DNA of 34,180 bases from an uncultured Gammaproteobacteria bacterium (lineage in GTDB: Bacteria; Patescibacteriota; Patescibacteriia; Magasanikbacterales; GWA2-37-8), in the NCBI GenBank assembly GCA_964439095.1, contig CAYTMT010000002.1, forward strand, positions 1 to 34,180, given 5' to 3'. The notes under the pieces were generated by a model that was given only the letters and a program-made list of their open reading frames with translations, ran no database searches and was not told the DNA's origin. Positions 9,074 to 32,700 of the stretch are shown here, one piece after another. The position numbers and the translations under genes are program-made. Every line of letters begins with the position of its first letter. Within the stretch, counting starts at the first letter, position 1.

Positions 9074-9145
9074 GGTACCGTAGCCAAGCAGTAAGGCAGA
9101 GGTCTGCAAAACCTCTATGCGTGGGTGCGATTCCCACCGGTACCT
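9074..9145 (+). tRNA. tRNA-Cys (GCA)
   Basis: Hand-folded cloverleaf. Acceptor GGTACCG/CGGTACC, anticodon stem GAGGT/ACCTC with loop CTGCAAA, T stem GTGGG/CCCAC, discriminator U73, A13-A22 mismatch typical of tRNA-Cys. No encoded CCA. T-loop is TGCGATT. Confidence 0.85.
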
Positions 9146-9152
9146 CAAAAAA

Positions 9153-16780: not shown

Positions 16781-16854
16781 GGGCCTATGGTGTAGTGGTA
16801 TGCCGCAGCATTCGCATTGCTGAAGCGGCAGTCCGATTCTGCCTAGGTCCACCA
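16781..16854 (+). tRNA. tRNA-Ala (CGC), CCA encoded
   Basis: Acceptor GGGCCTA/TAGGTCC containing the G3-U70 alanine identity pair, anticodon stem CAGCA/TGCTG with loop TTCGCAT, T arm GGCAG-TCCGATT-CTGCC, discriminator A followed by CCA (16852-16854). The D stem needs G-U pairs. Confidence 0.85.
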
Positions 16855-16904
16855 AATTTGATATCAAAAGAAGTTCCTGCTTCTTTAAAATTAAAATGCT
16901 CGCC

Positions 16905-16933
16905 TTGACAGGCGGGCTCTTTCATGCTATGAT
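16905..16933 (+). promoter_or_regulatory. Near-consensus sigma70 promoter for the 17010 gene
   Basis: TTGACA 16905-16910, 17-nt spacer, TATGAT 16928-16933. The leader has a small hairpin (ctcaca/tgtgag) and an SD GAGGGG at 17001-17006. Confidence 0.7.
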
Positions 16934-17009
16934 ATAGCGTTATTGGAATCATTTTCAATATCCCACTCCACGATGGAATCGCGGTAGTCTCACACCCTGT
17001 GAGGGGTAG

Positions 17010-17354
17010 ATGGTTAAAATTTTCAGCAATCTCCTGGCCTTGTCCATGCTGTTCTTGGTACAAGTTTTTGAAGGCTGCGTCTTAAGCGTGTTGTGGGGAT
17101 GGTTCCTGGTGCCGGTGGGGGTGCAGAGCGTTGGCGTGGTCCGCGCCGTCGGTATTGTGTTGATGGTGCGTTTTATTGCTACGCAGAGGTTGGTTTCTTC
17201 TCAGGAAGAAAAGAAGAAAATCAGCGAGATGATGGAGAACCGCTACGAGAGGCTGGACGAAATCCATGCGATGACGGTGGGTATGGTCGCACAGGCGGTC
17301 CACAAGTCTGTGCTCGCTCTTTTCTTTGGCTGGATCATTCACCTGTTCATGTGA
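17010..17354 (+). CDS. Hypothetical small membrane protein (114 aa, about 3 TM)
   Basis: Chosen over the overlapping frames (17093-17467 plus, 17082-17447 minus) for four reasons: an upstream promoter, an SD, hydrophobic helices, and a terminator 20 nt after the stop. Locally GC-rich. Confidence 0.55.
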   Translation: MVKIFSNLLALSMLFLVQVFEGCVLSVLWGWFLVPVGVQSVGVVRAVGIVLMVRFIATQRLVSSQEEKKKISEMMENRYERLDEIHAMTVGMVAQAVHKSVLALFFGWIIHLFM

Positions 17355-17374
17355 CAGGCGGAGTATCCCCAACA

Positions 17375-17414
17375 AGGCACCTTGCGATTCGTCGTTCGGT
17401 GCCTCTTCTTTTTT
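17375..17414 (+). terminator. Intrinsic terminator
   Basis: aggcacc 17375-17381 pairs with ggtgcct 17398-17404, followed by cttctttttt. Confidence 0.7.
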
Positions 17415-17496
17415 CAAAATACCTTTGTGTACTATGGATAAAAGCATTTTTTAGGAGTATCTTATAGGTAGGTATAATTCCTAATTTGTAGAATTT

Positions 17497-17835
17497 ATGT
17501 ATATTCTAGTGTCTTGGCTTTTGAACGCGGTAGCTGTTATGGTGGCCGCCTATTTAATTCCCTGGGTTCGGGTGGATAATTTTTGGGTGGCATTGGTGGT
17601 GGCTTTGGTTTTAGGAGTGGTAAATATAACACTCAAGCCAATTTTAGTTGTTCTTACGTTACCAATCAACATTCTTACCCTAGGATTATTTACCTTTGTA
17701 ATTAATGCTTTACTTATCATGCTTACCGCTGGTATTGTGCAGGGCTTTGATGTGGGTGGGTTTGGTAGTGCTTTGTTATTTAGTGTTGTTTTAGGGGTAA
17801 TTAATGGTATTTTAGGTGGCTGGAGTAAACGTTAG
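17497..17835 (+). CDS. Phage_holin_4_2 (DUF360/YvlD-like) family 4-TM membrane protein
   Basis: 112 aa. LLNAVAVMVAAYLIPWVRVDNFWVALVVALVLGVVNITLKPILVVLTLPINILTLGLFTFVINALLIMLTAGIV matches the family pattern closely. TATAAT at 17472-17477. Confidence 0.8.
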   Translation: MYILVSWLLNAVAVMVAAYLIPWVRVDNFWVALVVALVLGVVNITLKPILVVLTLPINILTLGLFTFVINALLIMLTAGIVQGFDVGGFGSALLFSVVLGVINGILGGWSKR

Positions 17836-17862
17836 GGTTTGTTTTTACTAGGGCAGCAGGTT

Positions 17863-17898
17863 ACAAAGATGCAACTAAGTTGCGTCTTTGTTGTTTTC
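17863..17898 (+). terminator. Intrinsic terminator
   Basis: 13-bp stem acaaagatgcaac/gttgcgtctttgt (one G-U pair), loop taa, then a T-rich tail. Confidence 0.75.
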
Positions 17899-17901
17899 TC
17901 A

Positions 17902-17930
17902 TTGACAAAATATTCAAATAGTGTTATAAA
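17902..17930 (+). promoter_or_regulatory. Promoter for the 17977 gene
   Basis: TTGACA 17902-17907, 17-nt spacer, TATAAA 17925-17930. Canonical SD AGGAGG at 17966-17971, 5 nt before the ATG. Confidence 0.65.
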
Positions 17931-17976
17931 AAATTTAGACTAACACGTTCTTTCCACCATCCAAGAGGAGGCTAAA

Positions 17977-18624
17977 ATGCCTGGGATTTTTTCCGCTATC
18001 GCCGGTCTGCTGTTTCTTGCTGGTTTTGTGCCGTACATTCGTGCTATTTGGCACGGTGAAACAAAACCAAATAAAGCATCATGGCTTATTTGGACGTTTC
18101 TGGATGCGGTTACTTTGGCTGGTATGTATGCCAAAGGGACCGAGAACGCGCAAATCGTCTGCGCTTTTGTCGGATCGGTGGTGGTTTTGGTGCTAGCGCT
18201 AAAGCATGGGAAGTCCGGCTGGAGTATGCTGGACAAGGCGTCTTTGATTGCCGCTATCACGGGTGTTGTGCTTTGGGCGGCATTTAGCGATCCTGACATC
18301 GGAATTGTGGCGAGCTTGGTAGTAGTAACTGTAGGCTCATTCCCCACCTTCGTTTCCGCCTGGAATGATCCGGGTGCTGAAAACAAGGCAGGGTGGACAC
18401 TGTTCTTTCTGTCCTGTGTATTTGGCGTTATGGCCATAACGGAATGGACATTGGCATCTGCTGCCCAACCCATCGCTTTTTTGTTTACTAACCTGACAAT
18501 GGTGTCTCTCATCTATTGTCGTCCTGGTTTCAACAAAGCCACTCCAACCAGTTTTGTTGGTAGAAAAAAGAGGGCACGTACCGCAAAAAGAGGAAAAGGC
18601 GTAAGCGTAAGTAGAAGTAAGTAG
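17977..18624 (+). CDS. Polytopic membrane protein with internal duplication (PQ-loop/SWEET-like, tentative) and basic tail
   Basis: 215 aa, about 6-7 TM. The repeated motif is VPYIRAIWHGETKPNKASW (residues 18-36) and FPTFVSAWNDPGAENKAGW (residues 122-140). The C-terminal tail is GRKKRARTAKRGKG. Promoter, SD and terminator support the plus strand over the antisense ORF 17940-18512. Confidence 0.65.
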   Translation: MPGIFSAIAGLLFLAGFVPYIRAIWHGETKPNKASWLIWTFLDAVTLAGMYAKGTENAQIVCAFVGSVVVLVLALKHGKSGWSMLDKASLIAAITGVVLWAAFSDPDIGIVASLVVVTVGSFPTFVSAWNDPGAENKAGWTLFFLSCVFGVMAITEWTLASAAQPIAFLFTNLTMVSLIYCRPGFNKATPTSFVGRKKRARTAKRGKGVSVSRSK

Positions 18625-18632
18625 AAAAAGTG

Positions 18633-18671
18633 TGCCGTTAGGGGTTTGCCCATAACGGCATTTGTTTTTTT
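18633..18671 (+). terminator. Intrinsic terminator
   Basis: tgccgtta 18633-18640 pairs with taacggca 18653-18660, followed by tttgtttttt. Confidence 0.75.
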
Positions 18672-18739
18672 GTTCCACAAGGAACTTTCTAGAACAACCT
18701 GTGGACAAAACTGTTAGTAAGTTGTGGGTAAAAGTTATG

Positions 18740-18763
18740 TTTGTATACACTAGTGTATACAAA
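18740..18763. repeat. Perfect 24-bp palindrome
   Basis: tttgtatacactagtgtatacaaa is its own reverse complement (checked base by base). It lies 17 nt beyond the stop of the LAGLIDADG-like gene. Confidence 0.95.
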
Positions 18764-18779
18764 TTTTAGAATTCAAGTA

Positions 18780-19211
18780 TCAGGCTGTTCCACGCGGAAC
18801 TGTAGATATTATGAGTTTTATTTTTTTATCCATGCTTTTTAAGTTAAGCACTTCTTTTTTCCATTTTTTAAATAAGTCCTTTCTTTTTCCATAGAGCCTG
18901 CCATTAAGAGTGGGAAAAAGATTCTTCTTTATTGTTTCTTTACTGCGTATAAGCAAAAGAACATAATTGCGATTGCTGTGGGTGTATCGGTATATTTTTT
19001 CTGTTAATCCTAGTTTTGTTTTTATTAGTTCGATTAGAGGTGCATCGGAGATGTGTGTTTTTATTTGGAAAACAGGTATTTTTGTCTTGTTTTGTTTTAT
19101 CCAAAGAAAAGATCCGCTGGTGGCAATAACTCCAGCGACAAAATCAAGGGAAGGTAGTTTTATTTTTTTATCCATATTTGGGGCATTATTATATGTTTCT
19201 CTGTGAAACAT
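18780..19211 (-). CDS. Free-standing single-motif LAGLIDADG-like homing-endonuclease homologue with a degenerate catalytic motif
   Basis: 143 aa (131 aa if it starts at the ATG at 19175). The motif LDFVAGVIATSGSF (19107-19148) aligns with the LAGLIDADG core G-[FL]-[IF]-[DE]-G-[DE]-G-S-F, but Ala and Ser replace the acidic residues. The downstream beta-rich region and basic C-terminus resemble the I-CreI-type layout. Very AT-rich, with 18/60 G+C counted at 18841-18900. Confidence 0.6.
   Translation of the reverse strand: MFHRETYNNAPNMDKKIKLPSLDFVAGVIATSGSFLWIKQNKTKIPVFQIKTHISDAPLIELIKTKLGLTEKIYRYTHSNRNYVLLLIRSKETIKKNLFPTLNGRLYGKRKDLFKKWKKEVLNLKSMDKKIKLIISTVPRGTA
18814..18833. repeat. 20-bp direct repeat, copy 1 (agttttatttttttatccat)
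   Basis: Identical to 19156-19175. On the coding strand both copies encode MDKKIKL, near the C-terminus and at the N-terminus of the LAGLIDADG-like ORF respectively. Confidence 0.9.
19156..19175. repeat. 20-bp direct repeat, copy 2
   Basis: Identical to 18814-18833, with a 342-bp spacing. Confidence 0.9.
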
Positions 19212-19363: not shown

Positions 19364-21685
19364 ATGTTTAATAACAAACTCGTTCGGCTATTTGATATGG
19401 CGACGTATATTATTTTGTTCATTATCGCAATCACCATTCCATTGTTTGTTGATAAGCACTTGGTAAATGCGTACGTTGTTCCTAAACAATATCTGTTTGC
19501 AGGGTTAATATTAGTGGCGTTGCTTACGGTTGCGGTCAAAACAGTGTTGGCAAAACGAGTTGAGCATGTTCGTTCGGTAATAGACACGCCGATTTTTGTT
19601 GTGTTGGGACTTTCATTATTATCGAGTTTGTTGGCAATAAATACATCAGATAGTTTTTTAGGTAGAAACGATTCTTTTGGGCTTAATTTTATTTTTATTG
19701 CAGTATCGGCTCTGTATTATTTTTTGTTGGTGAATTATGTGCGCACGGTGGGGCGTTGGCAGGCAATGTTGAATGTGCTGGTTGCAGTCGGAGGGGTAAC
19801 AGCAACTTTGTTTGTACTCAAATCCTTGTTTCATTTAGACTTACTTGCCTGGATAGCCCCGGGAATTTGGAATACGGTCGAAAAAATCAATAGCCCGTTT
19901 GGTTTGTGGTTAGTGATCGTGTTTGTGCTTTCCGCAGGACAGCTTATTCGTAAGGATGTTGCTCCAGGAAAAATGCTCCTATCTTTTTTTGTCATGCTTG
20001 TGTCTCTGGTTTCGCTTGTTCAATTGAGTTTCGTTATTTTGTGGTGGCTGTTATTTGCTGGAATTTTACTTCTCCTCCTTTTGGGCGTAATGTTTATTCA
20101 TGAGTCGCGACTAGGCTGGTTGTCGGTGTTGTTTTCGGTGCTTATTCTTACAACAGTATTTATCTTTTTCGGCACACCTAAAACTTTACAGTCAGCAGTT
20201 CCAGTGGAGGTCTCTTTGGGAATTAAACCTTCTTGGAGTGTGGCTGGAAAGGTTTTGTTTTCTGGTATTAAGCCATTTTTTATTGGTAATGGATTGTCTT
20301 CATTTGGTGTTTCGTTTTCTCAATTTCGTCCAGTGGGTTTTAATGCCGACCAGCTCGCCTGGAATCTTCGTTTTAGTCAGCCGCAGAACACCTTTATTGA
20401 ACTCCTGGCTAGTGGTGGGGTAACACTCGCGCTCGCTTTTGTTTTTGTGGTATTACTTCTTCTTGGTCATGCATTCCAAATTTTGTTTAAGCTGCGTTCA
20501 GAAAATGTAATGCAAGGATTGGTTACGCGTTTGGCGGGTATTCCACCACTAGCTATTGAAATTTTTTTGGTGGTAGTAGCGTGGGTGGTAGCAACGATTG
20601 GTATGGCATTTGTGTTCTACGGACCAACGTTATGGATTATGTGGTGGTTACTTCTTGGGCTTACTGTAAGTGGGCTGGCTTTTTTGGATAACGGACTCAC
20701 TTCGGTGCGTGAGTGGGTAGTGGAGGAATCTCCGCAATACAGCTTGTCGTTTTCTTTTTTGTTAATTATTGTGATGGCAGCAGTTGTGCTGAGTGGAATT
20801 TTTGGAGCACGGTTGTATTTGGCAGAAATGGATTACGCTAAGGCGCTTCAGAGTAACGCGCAAGATGCGGAAAGGTTTTTGTTGAGCGCGTTATCTAAGC
20901 GAAGTAATTTTGATTTGTATCATGCGGCGCTCGCTCAGGCCTATCTGGTGGACGCAGTACAGGCCAGTCAAGCAGCGAAGCCTGATGTGCAAGCAATAAA
21001 CACGTTGATGGGAAATGCGGTAAACGAAGCGCGGACCGCAATGGATTTATCGCCACGGTCGGTGATGATTGCAGAGAATTTAGCTACTATGTACGAGAAC
21101 ACAGCAGCGCTTATTCCTGGAGCGCGTGATTGGGCGATAAAAACATTGGAGGAGGCACGAGTGCTTGAATCAACAAATCCAGTATTGCGTTGGCGTTTAG
21201 GTAATAATTATGCGGGGGCTGGAAAATGGGAAGATGCTATCAAAAACTATCAAGCTGCAATTGATCTTAAACAGGATTATGTGGCGGCCTATGTAAGTTT
21301 GGCTGTGGCATATCAGGCTACAAACGATTTAGATAAAGCAGTAGAAACATATCGTATTATTGCTCCGGCCGGGATAAATAATTCTGATTATCTTTTTCAG
21401 TTTGGAAAATTATTGTTTAATCGTAATAAAGGCACTGATCGTGCTGATGCTGAAAAGTTGTGGTTGGAGGCAGTGCGTATTACTCCTAATTTTTCCAACG
21501 CGTTGTATAGCCTTGGTTTGCTCAATGAAACAAAAGGAAATAACACCGAAGCTCTTCGGTATTACTACAAGGTGCGCGATTTAAATCCGGACAATAAAGA
21601 TATTATTACTAAAATTAAAGCGTTGGTGGGAGGAGACAGCGCTCCAACTCCAGCTGTTGCAAAACCAGGAGAAAAAAAACGCTAG
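19364..21685 (+). CDS. O-antigen ligase/polymerase-like (Wzy_C-type) polytopic membrane protein with C-terminal TPR repeats
   Basis: About 12 TM helices followed by a periplasmic-type loop (GNGLSSFGVSFSQFRP). The C-terminal third has TPR repeats (GKWEDAIKNYQAAIDLKQDYVAAYVSLAVAY..., ALYSLGLLNETKGNNTEALRYYYKVRDLNPDN). The ATG at 19364 is preferred because the ORF-track start at 19289 precedes the promoter. Confidence 0.8.
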   Translation: MFNNKLVRLFDMATYIILFIIAITIPLFVDKHLVNAYVVPKQYLFAGLILVALLTVAVKTVLAKRVEHVRSVIDTPIFVVLGLSLLSSLLAINTSDSFLGRNDSFGLNFIFIAVSALYYFLLVNYVRTVGRWQAMLNVLVAVGGVTATLFVLKSLFHLDLLAWIAPGIWNTVEKINSPFGLWLVIVFVLSAGQLIRKDVAPGKMLLSFFVMLVSLVSLVQLSFVILWWLLFAGILLLLLLGVMFIHESRLGWLSVLFSVLILTTVFIFFGTPKTLQSAVPVEVSLGIKPSWSVAGKVLFSGIKPFFIGNGLSSFGVSFSQFRPVGFNADQLAWNLRFSQPQNTFIELLASGGVTLALAFVFVVLLLLGHAFQILFKLRSENVMQGLVTRLAGIPPLAIEIFLVVVAWVVATIGMAFVFYGPTLWIMWWLLLGLTVSGLAFLDNGLTSVREWVVEESPQYSLSFSFLLIIVMAAVVLSGIFGARLYLAEMDYAKALQSNAQDAERFLLSALSKRSNFDLYHAALAQAYLVDAVQASQAAKPDVQAINTLMGNAVNEARTAMDLSPRSVMIAENLATMYENTAALIPGARDWAIKTLEEARVLESTNPVLRWRLGNNYAGAGKWEDAIKNYQAAIDLKQDYVAAYVSLAVAYQATNDLDKAVETYRIIAPAGINNSDYLFQFGKLLFNRNKGTDRADAEKLWLEAVRITPNFSNALYSLGLLNETKGNNTEALRYYYKVRDLNPDNKDIITKIKALVGGDSAPTPAVAKPGEKKR

Positions 21686-21701: not shown

Positions 21702-22328
21702 ATGAAAAAAATATGGGTGTTAGTATTGTTGGTGGTGTGTGGAATTCCGGCGGCAGTATTTGCAGCCATGTCTTCGACGAACTATACAATTTACGCGGAT
21801 AGCGTTGATACTGGTGATGTGTTTGCAGCTGGTGGTGGTTATGAGCTTTCGGGAACGGTAGGCGAATCCCCTGCTGGTTTTTCGACGAGCACCTCGTATG
21901 AGGTGCGTGCTGGATATCAAGCCATGGAGCGCGGTGAGTTGACGGTAAGTTTAGATCCAGAAACGGTATCGCTCGGTACGCTAAACACGTCAACCGTGGC
22001 TAGTGCTTCTGTGATAGCGCGGGTAACTAGCGATGCGGATACTGGTTATTCGCTCTCTGTTGGAGGGGTAAGTAACGCATTGCTTGATTCGGTGGCAGAC
22101 GGAAGTGTAAGTGCGGGTGCAGGAGAGTATGGTATGGCGGTGAGTGGGGCTGATAGTGTGGTTGGTTTGGAAGATGTGGCGGTAGTTTCCAACCAAGTCT
22201 TAGCGGCTTCATCGACAGCAGTAGTTGATAGTGCAACTGTCTTGACGTTTAAGGCTTCGATGAGTGAAGCAACTCCTCCAGGAACTTATAATCAAACAGT
22301 AGTTTTGCAAGTAGTAGCAAATTTTTAA
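21702..22328 (+). CDS. Small secreted beta-rich protein (WxL/SCPU-like surface subunit, tentative)
   Basis: 208 aa from the ATG at 21702. Signal peptide MKKIWVLVLLVVCGIPAAVFA. Duplicated SSTNY/STSTSY strand motifs. The C-terminus PPGTYNQTVVLQVVANF resembles the terminal strand of WxL and spore-coat-U-type subunits. No Trp-x-Leu motif. Confidence 0.7.
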   Translation: MKKIWVLVLLVVCGIPAAVFAAMSSTNYTIYADSVDTGDVFAAGGGYELSGTVGESPAGFSTSTSYEVRAGYQAMERGELTVSLDPETVSLGTLNTSTVASASVIARVTSDADTGYSLSVGGVSNALLDSVADGSVSAGAGEYGMAVSGADSVVGLEDVAVVSNQVLAASSTAVVDSATVLTFKASMSEATPPGTYNQTVVLQVVANF

Positions 22329-22346
22329 TTGCCACAGCAATTTGTC

Positions 22347-23252
22347 ATGTTAAAGGATAACATACAATATAGTTGGTTTTTTAGAGCTTTATTACCAGTA
22401 GCGGTATTATCTTTTTTGGTTTTGGGAGGAGTACAGCGTGTTTTGACGGCTGGTTTTGGGATTAGTCCCCCACGTGGAGTGGTTACTGTGGCACCAGGCG
22501 GGGAAACTGTTATAAGTCAAACTATTAAAAACGATTCCACAAAAACTACTCATTTTCGACTGCAAGTGATGGGTGTTGTCCGTAGTGCAACGGGCGGAAT
22601 TGTATTAGTCTCGGGGCGAGATGTAGCTGAGGCTTGGATAAAAACAGAAAAGAGCGACATGTCTATTGGTCCAGGGAAGGAAGAGAAGGTTCAATATGTT
22701 ATTGCAGTACCAAAACGAGTTTTGCCTGGCTCGCACTATGTGGGTTTGGTAGCGGAAACAGTTCCAGAGGGAGGAGTAAACGAAAGGGCGGTTGGAATTA
22801 CCACGCGCCTCGTTACTATTCTTACTGTTCAAGTTTCAGGTGTTGTGGAAGAGAAAATCTCTCTTGTGAATTGGCAACTGAATGGTGTATGGTGGAACAG
22901 TGTGCGGGCAGTACAATTACGTTTAAAAAATGAAGGAGCAATTGAAGTGCCAATTCGGATACAGTTAATGGGACGCGACTGGTTTCATCATCGACAACAA
23001 TTTACTATCCCTTTTGATCGACAAGTTTTGGTTGGCGAAGAGCGAGATGTTTTGGAAGTAATTAATGTTGCAGGAATGAAAAATACGTTTATTGGGCCGA
23101 CCGCTTTGGAGCTCGTTGTTTCGTATGGTCGTACTGCGCAAGTAATCGTCAGTGCTAGAACGGTCTGGTTTGTGCCTGGTTGGTTGGTTGGGTTAGTGGG
23201 TGCAGTGGTGGTTTTAGGAGGGGTATTTTTATGGCAGAGAAAACGTACTTAG
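22347..23252 (+). CDS. Two-domain beta-sandwich protein with C-terminal TM anchor (DUF916/DUF3324-like architecture, tentative)
   Basis: N-terminal signal or anchor, an Ig/chaperone-like pattern (ISPPRGVVTVAPGGETVISQTIKNDSTKTTHFRLQV), a second beta domain, then TM GWLVGLVGAVVVLGGVFLW and the basic stop-transfer sequence QRKRT. An alternative TTG start at 22329 abuts the upstream stop. Confidence 0.7.
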   Translation: MLKDNIQYSWFFRALLPVAVLSFLVLGGVQRVLTAGFGISPPRGVVTVAPGGETVISQTIKNDSTKTTHFRLQVMGVVRSATGGIVLVSGRDVAEAWIKTEKSDMSIGPGKEEKVQYVIAVPKRVLPGSHYVGLVAETVPEGGVNERAVGITTRLVTILTVQVSGVVEEKISLVNWQLNGVWWNSVRAVQLRLKNEGAIEVPIRIQLMGRDWFHHRQQFTIPFDRQVLVGEERDVLEVINVAGMKNTFIGPTALELVVSYGRTAQVIVSARTVWFVPGWLVGLVGAVVVLGGVFLWQRKRT

Positions 23253-23253
23253 T

Positions 23254-24018
23254 ATGCAGCGTGTTTTGTTAGTATTTTTAATCACAACAGGAACACTGAT
23301 CGGTGTTTTTTCGTGGTTGTCGGCTTCGGCAGAAACCAACTATCAAGGAGTGGTAATAAGTTTAACGGTGCCCAGCTCAACGGCGGGTGCTTATTGTGGT
23401 AATGGTGTTGTTGAAGCAGGAGAAGAATGTGATGGTGGTGGGAGTAACGGCTCATGTCCGGCAAATTGTAGCTCTACATGTGCCCCCAATTCATGTGGTG
23501 ATGGGGCAACATCGGACACAACCAGTGTTTTAATAAAAGCAAAACCAGAGAAACGTTTTTTGGGCGAGTCAGGACAACGCGACAATTTTGGCACGATCAT
23601 TCTGCTATCTTTTTTTGATCCAAATTCTTTGAGTTCTCCCCAAGAGATGGTTTTGGCTACCAATGATCAGGGAGAAGTAATAATAGACAAAAATAACTTG
23701 CCAGATTTAGCACCTTTTTCGGGGTGGTCTGCTACTGTAAAAGGACTATCACATCTGACAAAAAAAATTATCAATGTTGATGTGATTAGAAATCAAAGAA
23801 CGGTATGGGACTTTACTGCTAATAATCAAAATTTTTTATTGGCGGGTGATGTGCAAGCAAGAAAAGATGATGTGGTAGATGTTCAAGATATTTCTGCAAC
23901 GCTCACTGCATTTGGAGCGCAGAAAGATAAAAACGCTGATTTAAACAACGACGGTGTTGTTGATGTGCAAGATATTAGTATTATTCTTCCTAATTTTGGT
24001 AGCATCGGTGATAAATAA
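23254..24018 (+). CDS. Secreted protein with Cys-rich CGNG..EECD repeat and C-terminal dockerin-like tandem Ca-binding repeats
   Basis: Signal peptide. YCGNGVVEAGEECDGGGSNGSCPANCSSTCAPNSCGDG at ~23392-23505 is of the myxococcal-type cysteine-rich repeat kind. DVVDVQDISATLTAFG...DLNNDGVVDVQDISIILPNFGS at ~23845-24010 is a dockerin-type duplicated F-hand pattern. Confidence 0.75.
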   Translation: MQRVLLVFLITTGTLIGVFSWLSASAETNYQGVVISLTVPSSTAGAYCGNGVVEAGEECDGGGSNGSCPANCSSTCAPNSCGDGATSDTTSVLIKAKPEKRFLGESGQRDNFGTIILLSFFDPNSLSSPQEMVLATNDQGEVIIDKNNLPDLAPFSGWSATVKGLSHLTKKIINVDVIRNQRTVWDFTANNQNFLLAGDVQARKDDVVDVQDISATLTAFGAQKDKNADLNNDGVVDVQDISIILPNFGSIGDK

Positions 24019-24024
24019 TTTTTT

Positions 24025-26724
24025 ATGTCTTTTTTTTCAAAACGAGTGGGTGTGGTGGTGGGGGTGTTAAGCGCGGTACTTATTTTTCCGATATCGGTTT
24101 TTGCGGCCGCCTCTTTTGAATTGAGTCCAAGTGGTGGGTCGTTGGTGGCGGGGTGTTCTCAAACCATCAAGGTTATTATGAAAACGGATAGTGTGGTAAA
24201 TGGAGCGCAAGTGTATCTGAATTATAGCGGTTTAGGAAATGCAGATTTATCGATAGAAAAAGGTACTGCTTTTTCTTCGTACGGCGTTTCACCTGAAGTG
24301 TTGCCGAGTAATATGAAAATGCGCTATGGCTATGGTGCGGATGTGATCGGCCAAAATCTCGAATTTGCGAATATTGTTTTTTCTCCGCAGCAGGTTGGTT
24401 CGAATGTGTTGTTAACCATTAATACAACAAACATTAATAATGGGACAAAAATAAGCAAAATTGCCCGCGCTTTGGATGGTCAGAATATTTTAACAAACAC
24501 GATTGATGGGTCCTACACAGTGGTGAGTGGGTATTGCGATTATAATGATCCTGTTTTTGTTTCTTCTACTCCAGCAAAAAACGCTGTCAATTTTCCGGTA
24601 GATAAGGATATTATTTTGGATGTAACTGATACTGGTGGTTCGGGTATCGACGCTAATTCATTTTTGGTAGAGGTAACTCAAGGGGGTAGCACAGTTCCTG
24701 TGCAAGTTTCCTACACCAAGATAGGGTTAAATGATAATCATTATTTGTTTACCGTCCATCCTGTTTCTAATTTAATCCCCCAAGTAAAAGTGACAGTAAA
24801 TGCGAGTGTGAGGGATAGGGCAAATAATTCCGGAAATGAAAATATTACTTTTAACGACCTTACCTGCCAACAACTTGGTTGTGTTGATTCAGGGACCATT
24901 ACTCCTACTTCAACAAGTTCATCAACTTCTTCTGGTGGTGGTACGGGGATTACCCCACAATGTAGTGATCATGAAGATAATGATGGCGACGGACTGATTG
25001 ACTACCCGGCAGATCCAGGCTGCAAGAGTCCGGAGTGGAACAATGAATATGTGGCTGGTGAAGCGCAGAATCCTAACCCTACCACTGGTGGTGGCACCCA
25101 AACCTCTGCTTTGTTGACCGTGGACAATGTGCATTTTTATTTAGCACAAGGATCTATTGAAGCTCATTTAGGGTCTGGTTCAACATTGGAACACCTGCCG
25201 CAGTCATCTTTAAAAATTGCAGTTGATACGAATATTGGTGAAGGGGTAACTGCCGCGAAAGTTATTTTGGGTGAAATGCGACGGGATATGTTTTTTGATA
25301 ATGCCCTTAAAAAATACGCAGTAGAATTATTTACCCCAGAGGGCTCTAGTGTGATTGATGGCACAGTAACCGTAGTTCATGGGAGTATAACTGAGTCAGT
25401 GCCGTTTCATGTTGTGCTATTACCGTTAGGAAAAATTTTTACTAAGACAGTTGTGGGGGGTGAAAAAAATTTAGCTGGAGCGCATGTTTTTCTAGACCAG
25501 CTCACGGGGGCAAATAATTTTGTACCAGTCAAAGAAGCGTTTACCAACGAAAACGGTGAGTATTCTTTTGTGGTCCCAAACGGAGGGTATCGTTTGCGCG
25601 TTCAGACAAGTGGTATCTCAACCGAAGAAACAGCGGGTTTTCGAATTACGAACAATATTGTGAATCGTCCTGTGGGTATTCTTATTCCTCCCAATCCAGA
25701 CGCCTCACTTTCAGAACAAATTCAATATGTAGCTGAGGTTGTGGCACGTCAGAGCGGAAAGACTTTGGGGCGTATCAATGATCCGCAGGTAGAAAAAATA
25801 GTAGGAAACCAGATAGCTCCTTTAGCCGCGGCTACAACCGCTTTGGCAGTTGTTCCTGCGTTGTCGCTTTTGAATCTTCTTTCATATTTGCGCTATCTGT
25901 TCTTACAACCACTCCTTCTCCTGCGTCGTCGGCAACGAAAAGAATGGGGTGTGGTCTATAATACGCTGAACAAGTTACCGGTTGATCTGGCTGTGGTGCG
26001 TTTGATTGAGGTAAGTGGCGGCAAGGTGGTGCAGTCGCGTGTTACCGATCGCGAAGGCCGATTCGCTTTCTTTGTTTCCGTTCCTGGTTTGTATCGAGTT
26101 GAAGTTAATAAAGATCGTTTTATTTTCCCGAGTAAAATTCTTCAGGGAATTTCTGAGGATACCTCATTTTTGGACCTGTATCATGGTGAGCCAATTCATG
26201 TTGATGTAAAAGATACGGTAGTAGCGGTAAATATTCCGCTTGATCCGATGGGTGGGATAGAAAAAACACCAAGCCGTATTATTTGGGATCGTAGTTTTCG
26301 TCAATTTCAAGTAGCTTTATCGCAATTTAGTATTGCTGCCGGAATAATTTCACTTCTTATTACCCCTACTTGGTTTGTAGGAGGGTTGCTCGTATTGCAA
26401 GTTGTTCTGTATGCGCTATTTCGACGGTTAAGTCAACCGAATAAACCAAAAAGCTGGGGCATTGTAAGTGATTTACGTCAAAAAACACCGGTAGAACGAG
26501 TCATTGCTCGGTTGTTCTCGAAGCAATTTGATAAACTTGTGGCCACTGAGGTTACTGACGGCAAAGGACGGTATTCGTTTTTGGCTGGTCCCAGTGATTA
26601 TTATGTTACTTTTGAAAAAAATGGTTATAAAAAAGAAATAGTAGAGGGTGTTCGGGTGAAAGAACACGGTGAAACGGTAAAAAAAGACGTGTCAATACAA
26701 AAAATTGAGGAAGATAAAAAATAG
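24025..26724 (+). CDS. Large envelope protein: cohesin-like N-domain, Ig-like domains, DNDGDG..DPGC motif, CarboxypepD_reg-like domains interleaved with TM segments
   Basis: 899 aa. Signal peptide, then a cohesin-like segment (FELSPSGGSLVAGCSQTIKVIMKTDSVVNGAQVYLNYSG) and SbsA/Big-like repeats. These are followed by an S/T linker, CSDHEDNDGDGLIDYPADPGC, three NGEYSF/EGRFAF/KGRYSF beta-sandwich modules, and hydrophobic segments near 25813-25920 and 26330-26420. Confidence 0.85.
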   Translation: MSFFSKRVGVVVGVLSAVLIFPISVFAAASFELSPSGGSLVAGCSQTIKVIMKTDSVVNGAQVYLNYSGLGNADLSIEKGTAFSSYGVSPEVLPSNMKMRYGYGADVIGQNLEFANIVFSPQQVGSNVLLTINTTNINNGTKISKIARALDGQNILTNTIDGSYTVVSGYCDYNDPVFVSSTPAKNAVNFPVDKDIILDVTDTGGSGIDANSFLVEVTQGGSTVPVQVSYTKIGLNDNHYLFTVHPVSNLIPQVKVTVNASVRDRANNSGNENITFNDLTCQQLGCVDSGTITPTSTSSSTSSGGGTGITPQCSDHEDNDGDGLIDYPADPGCKSPEWNNEYVAGEAQNPNPTTGGGTQTSALLTVDNVHFYLAQGSIEAHLGSGSTLEHLPQSSLKIAVDTNIGEGVTAAKVILGEMRRDMFFDNALKKYAVELFTPEGSSVIDGTVTVVHGSITESVPFHVVLLPLGKIFTKTVVGGEKNLAGAHVFLDQLTGANNFVPVKEAFTNENGEYSFVVPNGGYRLRVQTSGISTEETAGFRITNNIVNRPVGILIPPNPDASLSEQIQYVAEVVARQSGKTLGRINDPQVEKIVGNQIAPLAAATTALAVVPALSLLNLLSYLRYLFLQPLLLLRRRQRKEWGVVYNTLNKLPVDLAVVRLIEVSGGKVVQSRVTDREGRFAFFVSVPGLYRVEVNKDRFIFPSKILQGISEDTSFLDLYHGEPIHVDVKDTVVAVNIPLDPMGGIEKTPSRIIWDRSFRQFQVALSQFSIAAGIISLLITPTWFVGGLLVLQVVLYALFRRLSQPNKPKSWGIVSDLRQKTPVERVIARLFSKQFDKLVATEVTDGKGRYSFLAGPSDYYVTFEKNGYKKEIVEGVRVKEHGETVKKDVSIQKIEEDKK

Positions 26725-26758
26725 TCCACAAAAAACAAGATAAACTTCGCCCTATATG

Positions 26759-26767
26759 TGGTATAAT
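26759..26767 (+). promoter_or_regulatory. Extended -10 element (TGgTATAAT) 7 nt upstream of the giant-ORF ATG
   Basis: TG 26759-26760, TATAAT 26762-26767, ATG 26775-26777. No SD fits in the 7-nt gap. Confidence 0.5.
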
Positions 26768-26774
26768 AAGGTAT

Positions 26775-29700
26775 ATGGAAAAAATTGATCGGCTGTTGAA
26801 AAAGAATCGAAAGAGAACTCGGGCCATTTTAATGTTGGGGCCATTATTTTTCTTTGTGTTTTTGTTTTTTGGGCTCGTAGCCCGTTCTTCTTTTGCTGTA
26901 GCCGCAGCGGTTCCAGACGTTATAACGTATCAAGGTAAATTGTTGCTGAATAATGCTTCGGTAACGACTACTGTCCCAATACAGTTTGTTCTCTATGACA
27001 CTCCCAGCGCTGGAACGATTTTGTATACGGCCAGCGGAACTATAGGGGCTCCAGCAGCAACAGCAGTAACTCCAAATAAAGGCTTATTTAGTGTTGAGTT
27101 AGGTGGAAGTGGAACAAATCCATTAGACGCGGGCGTAGTATTTAAAAATAATAGCTCTGTTTATCTGGAAGTAACGGTAAACGGTGAAACCCTTTCTCCT
27201 CGCAAACGTTTAACGGCTAGTCCGTATGCTTTTAACGCAAAATATTTAGACGGTATTGCCGCCACAAGCACCCCCACTAGCTCAGCATATATTCCAGTAG
27301 CGGATTCTTCTGGTAATTTTAGTTTTAATCGGGTAACTTCAACCGGTTTTGTAGTGTCTGGCACTTCAACCTTGGCTACAACTACTATTTCTAGTTCGAC
27401 TATCGGGGTAGCGAATGTGGGGAATCTCTTTTTGACAAATGCCACCGGCACGAACTTATTTGTTTCCAGTCTTTCTGCGAGTAGTAGTGTTTTTTCCAGT
27501 GTTACGTCGAGCAATTTTTCCGTTACTGGTAATTTAGACATAACCACAGCGGTAATTCTTGGTCTCTCTACCGCGGATCTTTCGGATAGTAGCAGTCTGG
27601 CATATTTGGTTGGTGCAAATACCTTTACTGGTCCAAATACTTTCTCTGGAAATACTACTTTGGCCACTACTACCATTAGTTCTTCTACTATTTTTACTGC
27701 CAATATTAACTCGCTTAATGTTTTGTCTTCCTTGTCGTTGCCTGTTGCCTCAATTCTCGAGGCCTATCTTGCTCCTAATTCTGTTTCTTCCACCACGCTA
27801 AAATCAACAGGAGTAGTGGCTGGCACCTATGGTTCAGCCACACAAACAGCTCAATTTGTGGTGGATGAAGATGGTCGCATCCTTTCAGCCACCAATGTAA
27901 CTATCATTTCTTCATCTACAAGCCCTTCATCATCTTTTGATGGTACCATCGCTGCGGGTGATTTGTCGGGCACCTATCCAAATCCAACCGTGAGTAAAAT
28001 AAATGGCAATACATTGGGTAACACGGCCATTACTGGTGGTAACATTTTAGTGGCCAGCAGCACAGCAGGTTGGACATCGGTAGCGCTGGGGGGTGATGCG
28101 ACGATTGATTCTTCTGGTTTACTTTCCATTACCAACAATACGGTTACGGTGGCCAAGTTAGTAGCAGGTGATTTTTCTAGTAAAATAAATACTGGTACTT
28201 ATTCTATTAATGTTACCGGAACCGCTTCGAATGTAACTGGTGTGGTAGCATTGGCTAATGGTGGAACCAATGCAAACGCTAGTTTCTTCACTACCCCGGG
28301 CGAGTTTATTATCTATGATGGAAGTCGGTTAGTGGGGGCTGGTTTTTCTTCATCTTCGTTTGCTTTGACTAGTCACACACACTCCGCGGCAGATATTACG
28401 GCCGGTATTTTTTCGGGGGTAAGTTATACGTTCGCTAATGATTTGGCAGTATCTGGTTTTTCAACATTCCGTACCACCACCATCAGCTCTTCTTCTATTA
28501 CCACCGCCAATATTAACTCGCTTAATGTTTTTTCTGCCCTCACTCTTCCAGCTGCCTCAATCCTCGAAGCCTATCTCGCTCCTAATTCTGTTTCTTCCAC
28601 CGCGCTTAAATCAACGGGCGTAGCCAGTGGAATCTATGGTTCGGCCACGGAAATTGCTCAGTTTGTGGTTGATGAAGATGGGCGTATTCTTTCGGCCTCT
28701 AATGTTTCTATCGCCGCTTCTGTTACTACCACAGTGACTACTACTCTTGATGGCACCGCCGGCGGTGATTTGTCGGGCACCTATCCGGACCCAACCGTGA
28801 GTAAAATTAATGGTAACACGCTCGGCAATACGGCTACCACCAGTGGACATATTTTGGTAGCGAGTAGTACGGCAGGTTGGACATCGGTAGCGCTCGGTGG
28901 TGACGCAACGATTGACTATAATGGTTTGTTGTCAATTACAAATAATACTATCACCGCGGCCAAGCTAGCAGCTGGTGATTTTTCGAGTAAAATTAATGCG
29001 GGCACATACACAATTAGTGTCACCGGTACAGCCGATAACGTTACCGGCGTGGTAGCTATTGCCAACGGTGGTACAAATGCAAATGCCAGTCATTTTACTA
29101 CTCCGGGTGAGTTTGTAATTTATGATGGCAGCCGGTTGGTTGGATCAGGATTCACATCGTCTTCCTTTTCTTCGGGTGGTAGCCATACCCATCCTGCTTC
29201 GGATATTACCGCCGGTACTTTTGGCGGGTCGAGTTATGTATTTGCTAATGATTTGGCGGTGTTGGGTTCGGCGACTTTTGCTACTGCTACGGTACAGAAT
29301 GCGTTGCAAACCGACTCTGGGTTATTTTTATCGCAAGTTGGTTTGGCTGTTCCTAATTTGTTAACTAACCCTTCTTTTGAAAGTGGTATCACCAACTGGG
29401 GTGATCGACTTGGGTTTTTGGGTGGCAGTACATATTCAGTAACCAGCACTGCTTATAGCGGGTCTTCTGCCTTGCAGTTAGAGGCCAGGCTAGATTTGAG
29501 TGGGTTTTTTGGTGGCCCACCGCTTAAAATCGGCTACTTTTATCACGATACTTCTAATGTAACGCAAAGCGCTAGTAGTACTATTAGTTTTTATGCCCGC
29601 GGTGCAGTTGGTGGCGAACACGCGCGTATTTTGATTGAGCGTGATCCGGGTACTGGGCAAGCTGGTTGTGGTGGTAGTTTAGCTTCGGTTTATAATTTTA

Positions 29701-32700
29701 CCACTGGTGGTTGGGATTGCGTGGATTTACAAACAAGTGTGGCGGCTTTTGCGGTTGCTTCGCCGAATACTCAATCTTTTAGTTTAACTACAAGTTATCA
29801 ACGTTTTAATGCTACCTTTAATCCGGGTGCCTATGGTACGGTGCAAATCTCTATATTAGCCGGTGGTGCCTCGGCCTATAATGATGAAGTAGTTTTGTAT
29901 GATGCATTTAAATTGGAAGCAGGTAGCACTCCGTCATCATTTGATGGTGGTTCATCACCCATGTTCGCTTTAAAAAATAATAACGCAGCGGCGGACTATA
30001 ATTCACAAACATCACTACTATCTGTTCAGGATTCGGCGGCTACTAATTTTTTCCAGATTATGGGTGATGGCCGGGCCAATGTTGGTAGTGCCAGCGTTAC
30101 TGGTTCCATTGCTGTTTTTGGTCGTGGTTCAGAGCAAACAGTGCTGAATGGCTATGGGCAATTATTATCCCGTGGCGCATTTGGCTCTGATGATACGCTG
30201 ACTAGTGCTACTGGATCGCAGTTTATCTGGTATCCAAAGCGGGGTGCATTTAGAGCTGGGTATACTGATACGCTCACCTGGGGAGATAATACAATTGGTA
30301 ATTATTCATTCGCCGCAGGTAACGAAGTTTCCGCGCCCGGTGTTGGTGCGATTGCGTTTGGTAAAAACGTAACAGTAACCGGAGCAAATTCGGTGGCTTT
30401 TAGTGCTAGTTCCACACTTTCCACAGTCGCCAATGATAATATTTTTTCATTGCTTGGGTATAAGGTGGGTATTGGCACGGTTAATCCGGCCACCGCTTTA
30501 GTGGTAGTGGGTACTACCACTCTCGAGAATTTATCAGTAACCGGTTCTACTACGCTTGATAATATTAGCCCAACAGGAATAAATCCGGTGCTAACAGTAA
30601 CTGGTGGTTTAAAGTTGGGGTATGTAGGTTCTGCTGCTCTTGGTACGTTGCGGTGGAGCGGATCGCGATTGGAGTGGTACGATGGTTCTTCGTGGGTAGC
30701 AACATCTTTGCCGGCAGCGACGGATAATGGCACTACACTCCGATATGATGGTGCCGAATGGGTGACGAGTACTTTTTTACGGAATCTTTATAGTAGTTCT
30801 CAAATTAATATTAATAACGCAACCGGCAGTGCGGTATTAGCAGTGCGTGGAAGTGATCTTGAGTTACCTATTGCGGAGTTTTACAATGGACGTAGTGGTT
30901 TTGAAGATGTTCCTGCTATCCTTTCTATTCAACAAGGTGGTGGTGGAAGTGGTTGGGTAGGGATAGGAACAAGTACACTAGATTCAGTATGGGAACCAAA
31001 GTTGTTGGTAAAAAGTGACAGTGGTGCTCTAATGAAGCTCGATGGTGGAGTTGATGGTCTCAGTAACGAAATTTCTCGTACTCTTCTTTTTACTGGTCTT
31101 GGTCGTCTATCATTAGGAACCACTACTGCGGCAACAGTGAATGCCGCGAAGGTGACAATCGTTGGTGAAGGATCCACTGGAGCCACAAATCCATTGCAAG
31201 TGTTGCGTAATGATGGTACATCAAATTTTGTTATCCGTGATGATGGAATGGTTTTTGTTAAAAAAGGAAGTTTGATTGTAAATTCTGATTCCACTGCTTT
31301 GTCTCGTCCGGCGTTGTATGTGACCAGAAAATCAGGCGATATTAGTCAGGTCATTGCGCAGTTTACTGATAACGCCAGTTCAACTTTGGCCAACACCATT
31401 CTTAGTATCAATGCTGGCGGTATCCAAATTAACACTACAACTCTTGATTATTATAGTGTCGCAGGGATTCAAGGTGTTGGCGGAATTTCTATGGTAGATA
31501 GTGGCAGCTCGCCAGGTGTTGCCACCGGACCGCGTTTTTTGTGGAGTGGCAGTAAATTTCGAGTGGGCACATTTAATAGTGAGTTTGGTTTGGGGGCTGA
31601 CACTATCGCCCTTGGCACTGATGCTTATGCCGACCAAATTGAGGCCACTGCTCTCGGCTTGCATGCGTTGGCTACTGGGCGGAGGTCTTTAGTGTTGGGA
31701 AACGGAACTGCCTCTGGTGATTTTTCAACAGCAATTGGTAATGCGGAGTTCGTGTCAGTTGGTCATGATAAAGCGAATAGTTTTAATGTTCCCGAGGCCA
31801 GTGGTTATGGTGCGATTGCCATCGGGAGTGGAAGCATAAGTCAAAACTTTGGTGCCAAGACTCTGGCTGCAGGGACATCGTCACTTGCCATTTTTGGTAT
31901 AGCTTCTGGTACACAGTCGGTGGCGTTGTGGGGTGATGCTTCCGGCGACAATTCAATGGCTTTTGGGCGTTATACTTCTATCACTGCTTCTGGTGCTGTG
32001 GTATTAGGGCGGGGTGTTGATAGTAATAACCCGTTATTAAACACTACCAACAATTCTTTGGCTGTTGGTTTTAATTCTGATGTTCCCACCTTTTTTGTAG
32101 GTGGTGGTTCGGGAGTTGGCACATATGGCCAAGTAGGTATTGGCACCACCAACACTGCGTACACACTCGATGTGCGCGGTACTTTTGGCGCCACCGGTAC
32201 TTCCACTTTAGCCACCACCACCATTACCGCAGTCGCGAGCAGTTTAATACCTACCGAAGATAATGTATTTAGCTTGGGTACGTCGCTCATTCGCTGGAAA
32301 GATTTGTATGTAAGCTCCAGTAGTTTGCATATTGGCGCAGATGGTGCCGAGGGCAGCATTCATTATAATACTGATGACCATTATTTATCATTCAACGCGG
32401 GTAGTGGTATTGCCAGTCAACTGGTGATTGTAAGTAGCACTGGTTTTGTGGGTATTGGTACGACTACGCCTAATGCTGTGCTTACCGTGGGTGGTGGTGC
32501 GTATTTGGATGGCGGCTTGGAAGTAACTGGAAGTGCCACATCAACTGGTGATCAATATGTAGGTGGAAATTTATCAGTGATAGGATTAAGTCATTTTGCA
32601 AACCTTACTTGGGATAGTGCAACGGGCACGAGTGTGTTTCTTTCAAATGCAACGGCCATTGATGCTATGGTGGGAAATTTAACAGTGACGAGCACTCTCG

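Follow-up and report, generated by a model that had tools for sequence, protein, structure and literature searches.

Is the gene pair located at positions 21702 to 23252 of the DNA analyzed here a WxL locus outside the Firmicutes, or does it belong to another kind of surface system? The whole stretch, which we call the window, comprises 34,180 nucleotides of contig CAYTMT010000002.1 (assembly GCA_964439095.1). A sequence-only reading had described the pair as WxL-locus-like, a small secreted subunit followed by a DUF916-like partner anchored by a transmembrane (TM) helix, in a non-Firmicute context. An open reading frame (ORF) check of the window found both genes, called p1 and p2 in what follows, adjoining on the + strand at these coordinates, and the strings quoted in that reading (SSTNYTIYAD, STSTSYEVRAGY, LTVSLDPETVSLGTLNTSTV, ARVTSDADTGYSLSV and PPGTYNQTVVLQVVANF) were all present. 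Our answer keeps one part of the proposal and gives up another. The assignment of p2 to the WxLIP proteins and the idea of donor-strand complementation stand; the identification of p1 as a WxL protein is wrong or at least unproven, and the restriction of such pairs to Firmicutes does not hold. We consider it likely that the pair is a divergent, minimal, Magasanikbacteria-type module of the Pam pilus, with which a bacterium with a single membrane would assemble subunits by donor strands, assisted by a chaperone and needing no usher.

Two known systems frame the question. The Pam pilus was described in Candidatus Mycosynbacter amalyticus, where PamA and PamB were solved by cryo-electron microscopy (cryo-EM) and assemble by donor strands (Troman et al., 10.64898/2026.03.03.709456). 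According to the same preprint, PamC and PamD are PapD/FimC-like chaperones with a C-terminal TM helix, PamT is the tip, and PamR is an RbmA-like anchor whose N-terminal strand was proposed to plug into the last pilin; a serine of PamA carries an unexplained modification. The preprint describes the bacteria of the candidate phyla radiation (CPR) as lacking an outer membrane and finds the Pam pilins chiefly in Saccharimonadia and Microgenomatia; Magasanikbacteria, ABY1 and Paceibacteria are not named in its main text. The earlier view that a pairing like p1 and p2 is described only for low-GC Gram positives has been outdated by this 2026 report of a CPR pilus with TM-anchored PapD-like chaperones. 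The second system is formed by the WxL/WxLIP (Csc) clusters of Lactobacillales and Listeria (Siezen 2006, PMC1534035; Hassan & Williamson 2022/2023, PMC9772566, PMC10599100; PDB 9i1y, 9i25). By definition each WxLIP is accompanied by two or more WxL proteins (a small and a large one), and in most cases also by an LPXTG protein, and the beta-sandwich of WxL is completed by a strand of the WxLIP (PMC10599100).

The first gene, p1 (21702-22328, + strand), runs from an ATG at 21702 to a stop codon at 22326-22328 and codes for 208 residues. A signal peptide (residues 1-21, MKKIWVLVLLVVCGIPAAVFA) is followed by a segment (residues 22-75) with the conserved N-terminal strand motifs SSTNYTIYAD, GGGYELSGTVGE and STSYEVRAGYQAM, and then by an immunoglobulin (Ig)-like pilin domain of about 130 residues (76-208). 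The last strand of this domain, GTYNQTVVLQVVANF, is pilin-like and has a terminal aromatic residue. We found more than 158 relatives in a database clustered at 90%, the named ones being annotated as 'hypothetical protein' from Patescibacteria or Candidatus Magasanikbacteria, and an exhaustive profile search (E<=1e-3) enlarged the family to 1814 clusters at 50% identity. A genome scan provided 55 genome loci for comparison, and in 54 of them p1 and p2 are adjacent. This recurrence, together with the number of relatives, rules out that the pair is a product of chance.

Release 20 of NCBIfam includes three models derived from the Pam preprint, NF058578 (PamR), NF058579 (PamT) and NF058581 (Pam_pilin_C) ('CPR-type pilus'), with curated cut-offs of 300, 240 (for PamT, an equivalog model) and 55 bits, respectively. 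PamT was matched by all 58 p1 family members analyzed (best E 1.9e-19, none near the cut-off) and Pam_pilin_C by 41 of the 58 (best E 1.4e-8, all below the cut-off). There are also sequences that bridge the distance. An intermediate homologue (L069:7278-7970) exceeded the Pam_pilin_C cut-off (96.9 vs 55 bits), and p1 itself could be aligned by BLASTP (E=9e-5) to a bona fide PamT (L066:3441-4163) scoring 295.9 vs 240 bits. At the level of sequence comparison, p1 can be considered as shown to be homologous to the Pam pilins.

The AlphaFold2 (AF2) monomer of p1 has a confident C-terminal domain (predicted local distance difference test, pLDDT, >90) and a poorly placed N-terminal region (about 50). 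Conservation within the family follows the opposite trend, 0.71 for residues 22-75 vs 0.59 for the C-terminal domain. When this model was compared with known structures by Foldseek, about 40 of the top 50 matches were chaperone-usher pilins (CS20, CsuA/B, FimA, the pilin domain of PapG, CfaB) with probabilities of 0.9-0.99. Sequence searches against the general collections were less informative: the p1 family profile had no match among PDB sequences even at E<=10, and Pfam returned only noise for the 58 family members, with no WxL, SCPU (PF05229) or fimbrial model. Some relatives of p1 are longer (300-367 residues; P0242, P0239, P0216 and P0273); they retain the three SxNYx(I/L) strand motifs and carry an extra domain either between motifs 2 and 3 or between motif 3 and the C-terminal domain. 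The family looks modular, and suggests a gradation from PamT-like to PamA/B-like pilins.

The second gene, p2, ends at 23252 (+ strand) and starts at TTG 22329 (307 residues) or, likelier, at ATG 22347, the start of the database gene call P0001 (301 residues), so that it begins 1 to 19 bases past the p1 stop codon. In the AF2 model (mean pLDDT 83.5; residues counted from the alternative start, TTG 22329) there is a hydrophobic helix at residues 15-35, followed by two beta-sandwiches (approximately 43-170 and 177-281) and by a TM helix (284-306) with a basic tail, WQRKRT. The architecture proposed before for this protein, two beta-sandwich halves, a C-terminal TM helix and a basic tail, agrees with this model. 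Its assignment to the DUF916/DUF3324 type was confirmed by family-level comparisons. p2 alone remained under the threshold of Pfam PF06030 (DUF916, now WxLIP_PGBD; E=0.12, 12.8 bits vs a cut-off of 27.3), and 38 of its 53 orthologues matched this family, the best one with an E value of 6e-8. PF11797 (DUF3324) was not matched by any p2 family member in HMMER. The p2 family profile retrieved from PDB the EfmWxLIP1 structures (9i1y, 9i25) at E=1.8e-5, and a broader profile did so at 2.1e-9. We also aligned the p2 family by hhalign with the WxLIPs of ten Firmicute WxL clusters taken from plasmids, and obtained a probability of 99.2% and E=9.6e-20 over 234 columns that cover both domains; with a broader CPR p2 family the E value was 6.6e-20.

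The predicted structure points in the same direction. The first Foldseek match of p2 was the WxLIP of Enterococcus faecium (9i25_C, E=2.7e-12), together with 9i1y (about 3e-12), and the next ones were the chaperones CfaA, CsuC, YadV, Caf1M, FimC, PapD, FaeE and EcpB at E values from 1e-10 to 1e-7. Judging from profile alignments and the AF2 model, p2 is a true WxLIP homologue (DUF916, DUF3324 and TM helix). The analogy with donor-strand, PapD-like systems put forward earlier gains support from these models, in which the chaperones of chaperone-usher pili come next to WxLIP for p2, and most matches of p1 are chaperone-usher pilins, the SCPU-type CsuA/B among them. The best-conserved segments of p2 are its first strand (AFSISP), the PGSHY strand and the strand RLVTILTVQVSG located after a variable loop of lower model confidence. 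In our own mapping, AFSISP and the strand after the loop would correspond to strands A1 and G1, with which PapD-like chaperones bind the pilin. The NCBIfam collection contained no Pam-related model matching the p2 family, PamR included, and gave only weak PACE-CTERM/LPXTG-anchor matches at the C-terminus, which are due to the TM tail.

The connection between both halves of the argument came from three contigs (L066, L067 and L069) that were reached through distant homologues of p2. On L066 the p2 homologue P0128 (L066:5409-6410) is preceded by the PamT mentioned above and by a pilin of 358 residues that exceeds the Pam_pilin_C cut-off (175 vs 55 bits), and a PamR-like protein (195.8 bits, cut-off 300) comes after it. 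The slot filled by P0128 is thus that of the chaperone in a bona fide Pam operon. The same P0128 passes the PF06030 gathering score (34.1 vs 27.3 bits) and aligns with p2 over 294 residues (BLASTP, E=4e-12). It follows that a chaperone of a Pam-type operon is a member of the DUF916/WxLIP family, and that the pair in the window is a divergent member of the Pam system. L069 and L067 showed the same pairing of pilin and chaperone, with intermediate pilins. As far as sequence alignments can tell, the Pam chaperones and the WxLIPs are one family. The Pam preprint mentions neither WxL nor DUF916 and we found no paper linking Pam to WxL systems in the library searched, so this link is apparently unreported.

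The genomic setting of the pair is remarkably constant. In the window it belongs to a run of + strand genes separated by intergenic gaps of about 50 bases at most: up798, coding for a membrane protein with a TPR domain, p1, p2, p3, p4 and a giant fibre-like ORF. The order up798-p1-p2-(p3)-p4 recurs in the 55 loci, with up798 directly upstream of p1 in 53, p2 in 54 (two of them with only a fragment of p2, at a contig end) and p4 in 36. The sole locus devoid of p2 (L024) is on a contig that stops just past p1. Three arrangements were found after p2: p3 then p4, a p3-p4 fusion, or the giant fibre gene directly. This operon (membrane-TPR, p1, p2, p3/p4, giant fibre) is conserved in about 55 Magasanikbacteria genomes. 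Nearly all the meaningfully labelled loci belong to Magasanikbacteria, which NCBI taxonomy treats as a phylum within the Parcubacteria group of Patescibacteria, and one to Buchananbacteria. The host is an ultra-small CPR bacterium, Magasanikbacteria-like, and the non-Firmicute context claimed before is well founded, with homologues and loci overwhelmingly of this origin and ordinary chromosomal genes around the pair. Many public metagenome-assembled genomes (MAGs) with the operon (L001, L004, L008, L010 and others) have the record title 'uncultured Gammaproteobacteria bacterium', and that of L027 is 'Candidatus Udaeobacter sp.'; these titles look like placeholders or binning errors.

A mechanism can be proposed from these homologies. 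p1 would be exported by Sec and its signal peptide removed. Its C-terminal Ig-like domain would be incomplete alone, and p2, tethered by its C-terminal helix to the cytoplasmic membrane, would hold it at the outer face. By homology with WxLIP-WxL and with Pam/Pap, p2 would lend p1 a beta-strand, most likely the conserved RLVTILTVQVSG after the variable loop, and this chaperone strand would later give way to a donor strand, for which two candidates can be named. One is the N-terminal strand region of another copy of p1, which would give rise to a thin homopolymeric fibre; we consider this region a candidate because it is highly conserved and yet poorly placed in the AF2 monomer. The other is the mature N-terminal strand of p3/p4 or of the giant fibre protein, which would couple these surface proteins to p1. 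The contact between p1 and p2, the identity of the donor strand and the polymerization of p1 are inferred by analogy with those systems.

The resemblance to Pam goes beyond the sequence matches. In both cases there is a CPR single-membrane host, a subunit predicted to be exported by Sec with a C-terminal domain of the Ig-like type homologous to Pam_pilin_C/PamT, an adjoining two-domain PapD-like protein with a C-terminal TM helix (here p2) and no usher. A tail-fibre-like gene is co-localized with the pam operon (10.64898/2026.03.03.709456), and a giant fibre-like gene is found near p1-p2. The differences are also clear. There is a single small pilin gene, with no two-domain PamA/B/E pilins (N-terminal sandwich, linker strand and C-terminal domain) and no PamR, the conserved partners are a membrane-TPR protein upstream and the dockerin/CarboxypepD_reg proteins p3/p4 downstream, no ATP synthase genes are present in the window neighbourhood, and the lineage is Magasanikbacteria.

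Several results weigh against a Pam module. The score of p1 against PamT was 51.4 bits (E=9.1e-14, p1 residues 5-126), far below the 240-bit cut-off, so p1 is not a PamT equivalog; against Pam_pilin_C it was 29.1 bits (E=8.9e-7), restricted to profile positions 78-148 and again below the curated value. All the Foldseek matches of p1 had E>=6e-3, those of CsuA/B, FimA and CfaB ranging from 8e-3 to 1e-1. There was no second pilin gene in the window or within 10 kb at either side in the 55 loci; actually, an hmmsearch with the p1 family profile over all the six-frame ORFs of the window and the 55 loci found exactly one p1-like gene per locus. The PamR model (NF058578) was matched neither by p3 and p4 nor by the p2 family, and BLASTP of the PamR-like protein of L066 against p3 and its L001 orthologue detected no similarity. 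Finally, equating p2 with PamC/PamD of M. amalyticus depends on the operon position in L066 and on the predicted fold, and should be taken as a putative correspondence.

A first alternative is that p1, as a true PamT orthologue, would be no more than the tip or cap subunit in a Pam pilus of the conventional kind with several pilins. The PamA/B/E-like pilins and PamR would be encoded elsewhere in the genome, and the neighbours of p1 would be unrelated surface proteins. PamT is indeed the best NCBIfam match of every p1 family member, PamT has a single domain according to the preprint, and the longer two-part relatives of p1 exist, one of them (P0273) labelled as Magasanikbacteria. However, p1 reaches only about one fifth of the PamT equivalog cut-off, and pilins adjoin the chaperone in L066, L067 and L069, which contrasts with the lack of a second pilin within 10 kb in the 55 Magasanikbacteria-type loci. 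Besides, up798 and p3/p4 are conserved alongside the pair, and the very conserved N-terminal strand region of p1 would be needless for a pure acceptor tip. We regard this explanation as unlikely.

A second one is that the locus is a literal WxL-type cluster, in which p1 would be a degenerate WxL domain bound non-covalently to the cell wall and stabilized by p2 as a static complex, with no fibre. p2 is a genuine WxLIP homologue across both of its domains, and the small secreted subunit is encoded immediately upstream of the TM-anchored partner as in 8 of the 10 Firmicute clusters that we retrieved; the mechanism proposed here, a strand of the partner completing the beta-sandwich of the subunit, would be another likeness, by analogy. 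p1 is the weak point. The profile comparison of p1 with 12 small WxL proteins from Firmicutes by hhalign gave a probability of 14% over 18 columns, 0.6% when trimmed to the domain and 4.9% with a C-terminal-domain profile of 260 sequences, none of these alignments extending beyond the first or the last strand; Pfam gave no WxL or SCPU match for any of the 58 family members, and the WxL chain 9i25_A was not among the top 50 Foldseek matches. As controls, the cross-comparisons (p1 with WxLIP and p2 with WxL) aligned signal peptides alone. The sole tryptophan of p1 is found in the signal peptide and mature p1 has none, hence neither of the Trp-x-Leu motifs is present, an absence already noticed in the sequence-only reading.

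A relaxed hhalign alignment of p1 with WxL was collinear (G.LS...S.xLG with G.LSI..AS.xFG, TGYxLS with GWTL, Y.QtxtLtxs with Y.TTLTWxLS). The likeness in the first and last strands is real yet statistically indistinguishable from chance, and we have thus treated p1 as a functional counterpart of WxL and not as a family member. The status of p1 as a WxL domain, suggested at the start, is not supported by Pfam, hhalign, Foldseek or the tryptophan-free mature protein. Nor do the surroundings fit. The published definition requires at least two WxL proteins per WxLIP (PMC10599100) and here there is one candidate, with no second (large) WxL protein and no LPXTG motif in p1, p2, p3, p4 or the giant ORF; p2 remains below the Pfam DUF916 threshold with no DUF3324 match in its family, and the host is a CPR bacterium and not a Firmicute. 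p1 is significantly related to the Pam pilins, and filaments of PamA and PamB were shown by cryo-EM. For these reasons we find a literal WxL cluster quite unlikely.

The third explanation concerns p2, which would be a membrane-tethered adhesin or anchor (PamR/RbmA-like, or 'host-binding' as first proposed for WxLIP) and not a chaperone, p1 being its cargo or ligand. RbmA appeared among the top Foldseek matches of p2 (E=1.2e-9), and the 2023 WxLIP paper assigns to the two domains peptidoglycan-binding and host-binding roles. The template modelling (TM) scores with RbmA were nevertheless 0.27-0.28, much poorer than those with chaperones (0.38-0.44). The PamR model of NCBIfam does not match the p2 family, and in L066 a separate PamR-like gene adjoins the p2 homologue. 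Moreover, in our mapping, the most conserved segments of p2 fall at the A1/G1 pilin-binding positions of PapD-like chaperones. This explanation is very unlikely. A TasA/SipW-type fibre or a sortase pilus was discarded because LPXTG motifs and relevant family matches were lacking and the window has no sortase gene.

The pair also has to be distinguished from the chaperone-usher pili (Pap/Fim, CFA/I, Csu). The predicted fold of p2 matches their chaperones and that of p1 their pilins. In contrast with them, there is no outer membrane in the host and no usher-like family among the operon genes (Pfam, NCBIfam), p2 is membrane-anchored instead of a soluble periplasmic chaperone, neither protein has a SCPU or PapD match at the sequence level in Pfam or NCBIfam, and the Foldseek E values of p1 are weak.

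If the pair is a Pam module, the Pam pilus reaches a further large CPR lineage, Magasanikbacteria, where it has a reduced form with one small pilin, one chaperone and different partners. The NCBIfam cut-offs do not name p1-type proteins, and for this reason they are still labelled as 'hypothetical'. The placing of the Pam-type chaperones in the DUF916/WxLIP family, in turn, ties a pilus system defined by cryo-EM to clusters whose mechanism has been unclear since 2006, namely the WxL/Csc clusters found in lactobacilli, enterococci and Listeria; if true, this suggests that WxL clusters work by chaperone-type strand complementation, and p1-p2 would be a simple two-gene system for usher-free donor-strand assembly. 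A more speculative extension, which we put forward with considerable doubt, is that Pam pili, the Firmicute WxL/WxLIP (Csc) clusters and the Magasanikbacteria module are branches of one ancient single-membrane pathway for surface assembly, in which a membrane-anchored chaperone operates without an usher. The part of a universal 'socket' would there fall to the single PamT-like subunit, which would polymerize through its own N-terminal strands or capture the 'plug' strands of p3/p4 (G-N-INVQxTVP) or of the fibre (IITYQGKLL), in either case mounting these proteins by donor-strand exchange.

The genes downstream of the pair provide the candidates for such strands. p3 (23254-24018, + strand) codes for a secreted protein of 254 residues with a dockerin-like module at its C-terminus (NF041540 dockerin_GC, E=3.9e-5). 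Its mature N-terminus consists of one conserved amphipathic strand, ETNYQGVVISLTVP (residues 25-39, 23326-23370), followed by a Cys-rich linker. The pattern G(N/D)INVQ(F/L/M)TVP plus a linker rich in Gly, Pro and Cys was matched by 32 of the 48 genes found downstream of p2. Two of these matches fell inside the signal peptide, and both proteins have a similar strand just after. An eight-residue INVQxTVP-type strand is conserved at the mature N-terminus of the post-p2 gene in some 30 loci. From its sequence it looks like a donor-strand 'plug', and p3 may be a donor-strand partner or an anchor. The PamR-like protein of L066 has a comparable layout of N-terminal strand and linker (ADQQSGSVLLEGFVKGPPPD); the likeness of p3 to PamR is one of analogous layout and goes no further.

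p4 (24025-26724, + strand) is a surface or membrane protein of 899 residues with a signal peptide, Pfam matches to CarboxypepD_reg (1.3e-18), SdrD_B (1.5e-10) and the Ig-like Big_5 (2.7e-4), and internal hydrophobic segments at approximately residues 597-619 and 761-802. It contains an acidic double-disulfide repeat and three CarboxypepD_reg domains at either side of the hydrophobic segments. p3 and p4 are fused into proteins of 1044-1305 residues in seven loci (L010, L032, L040, L043, L051, L052 and L054). The giant Ser/Thr-rich fibre-like ORF (26775-34178, + strand) lies in a frame open from 26718 to 34178 and leaves the window at its end, coding for at least 2468 residues. It begins with a signal anchor followed by the conserved mature N-terminus VPDVITYQGKLLL, and has its own conserved N-terminal strand, V/I-ITYQGKLL. 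N-termini of this type (APSIITYQGKLL) open the gene located directly after p2 in 13 of 48 loci. The part translated within the window matched no Pfam family.

On the other side of the pair, up798 (19364-21685, + strand) codes for a polytopic membrane protein with about 12 hydrophobic segments and a TPR domain at its C-terminus. TTG 19289 is the start of the mechanical ORF, and the consensus of orthologues favours the Met at 19364. The gene has the highest conservation of the cluster (mean column identity 60%) and probably belongs to the operon. Only TPR families were returned when 18 orthologues were compared with Pfam and a profile was searched against PDB. The stretch GNGLSSFG...SQPQNTFIELLASGG recalls motifs of Wzy_C/O-antigen ligases, which is our own reading and was confirmed by no model. 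A role as an O-antigen-ligase/Wzy_C-like glycosylase of the pilin was accordingly set aside as an unsupported reading of a motif.

The remainder of the window is ordinary chromosome, with dnaA, rnpA, tig, a H+-PPase gene, a M23/LysM peptidase gene, polA, holA, rmuC and three tRNA genes. dnaA (167-1576) is located at the left end and the cumulative GC skew climbs almost monotonically across the window, so the operon is on the leading strand, some 20 kb away from what is probably the origin of replication. A scan for promoters and terminators in the operon gave signals not above those expected from shuffled sequences. The mechanical polA ORF (TTG 9031) includes at its 5' end the gene for tRNA-Cys (9074-9146), so polA must really begin further downstream, near 9151. 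In the region 16854-19211 there is a LAGLIDADG endonuclease ORF that stands alone (18780-19211, - strand). Beside it there are about 1.9 kb (17082-18762) with only overlapping ORFs in both strands and no family matches; no Rfam match was detected there at gathering thresholds, and this stretch may be a decayed mobile element or the remnant of an intron.

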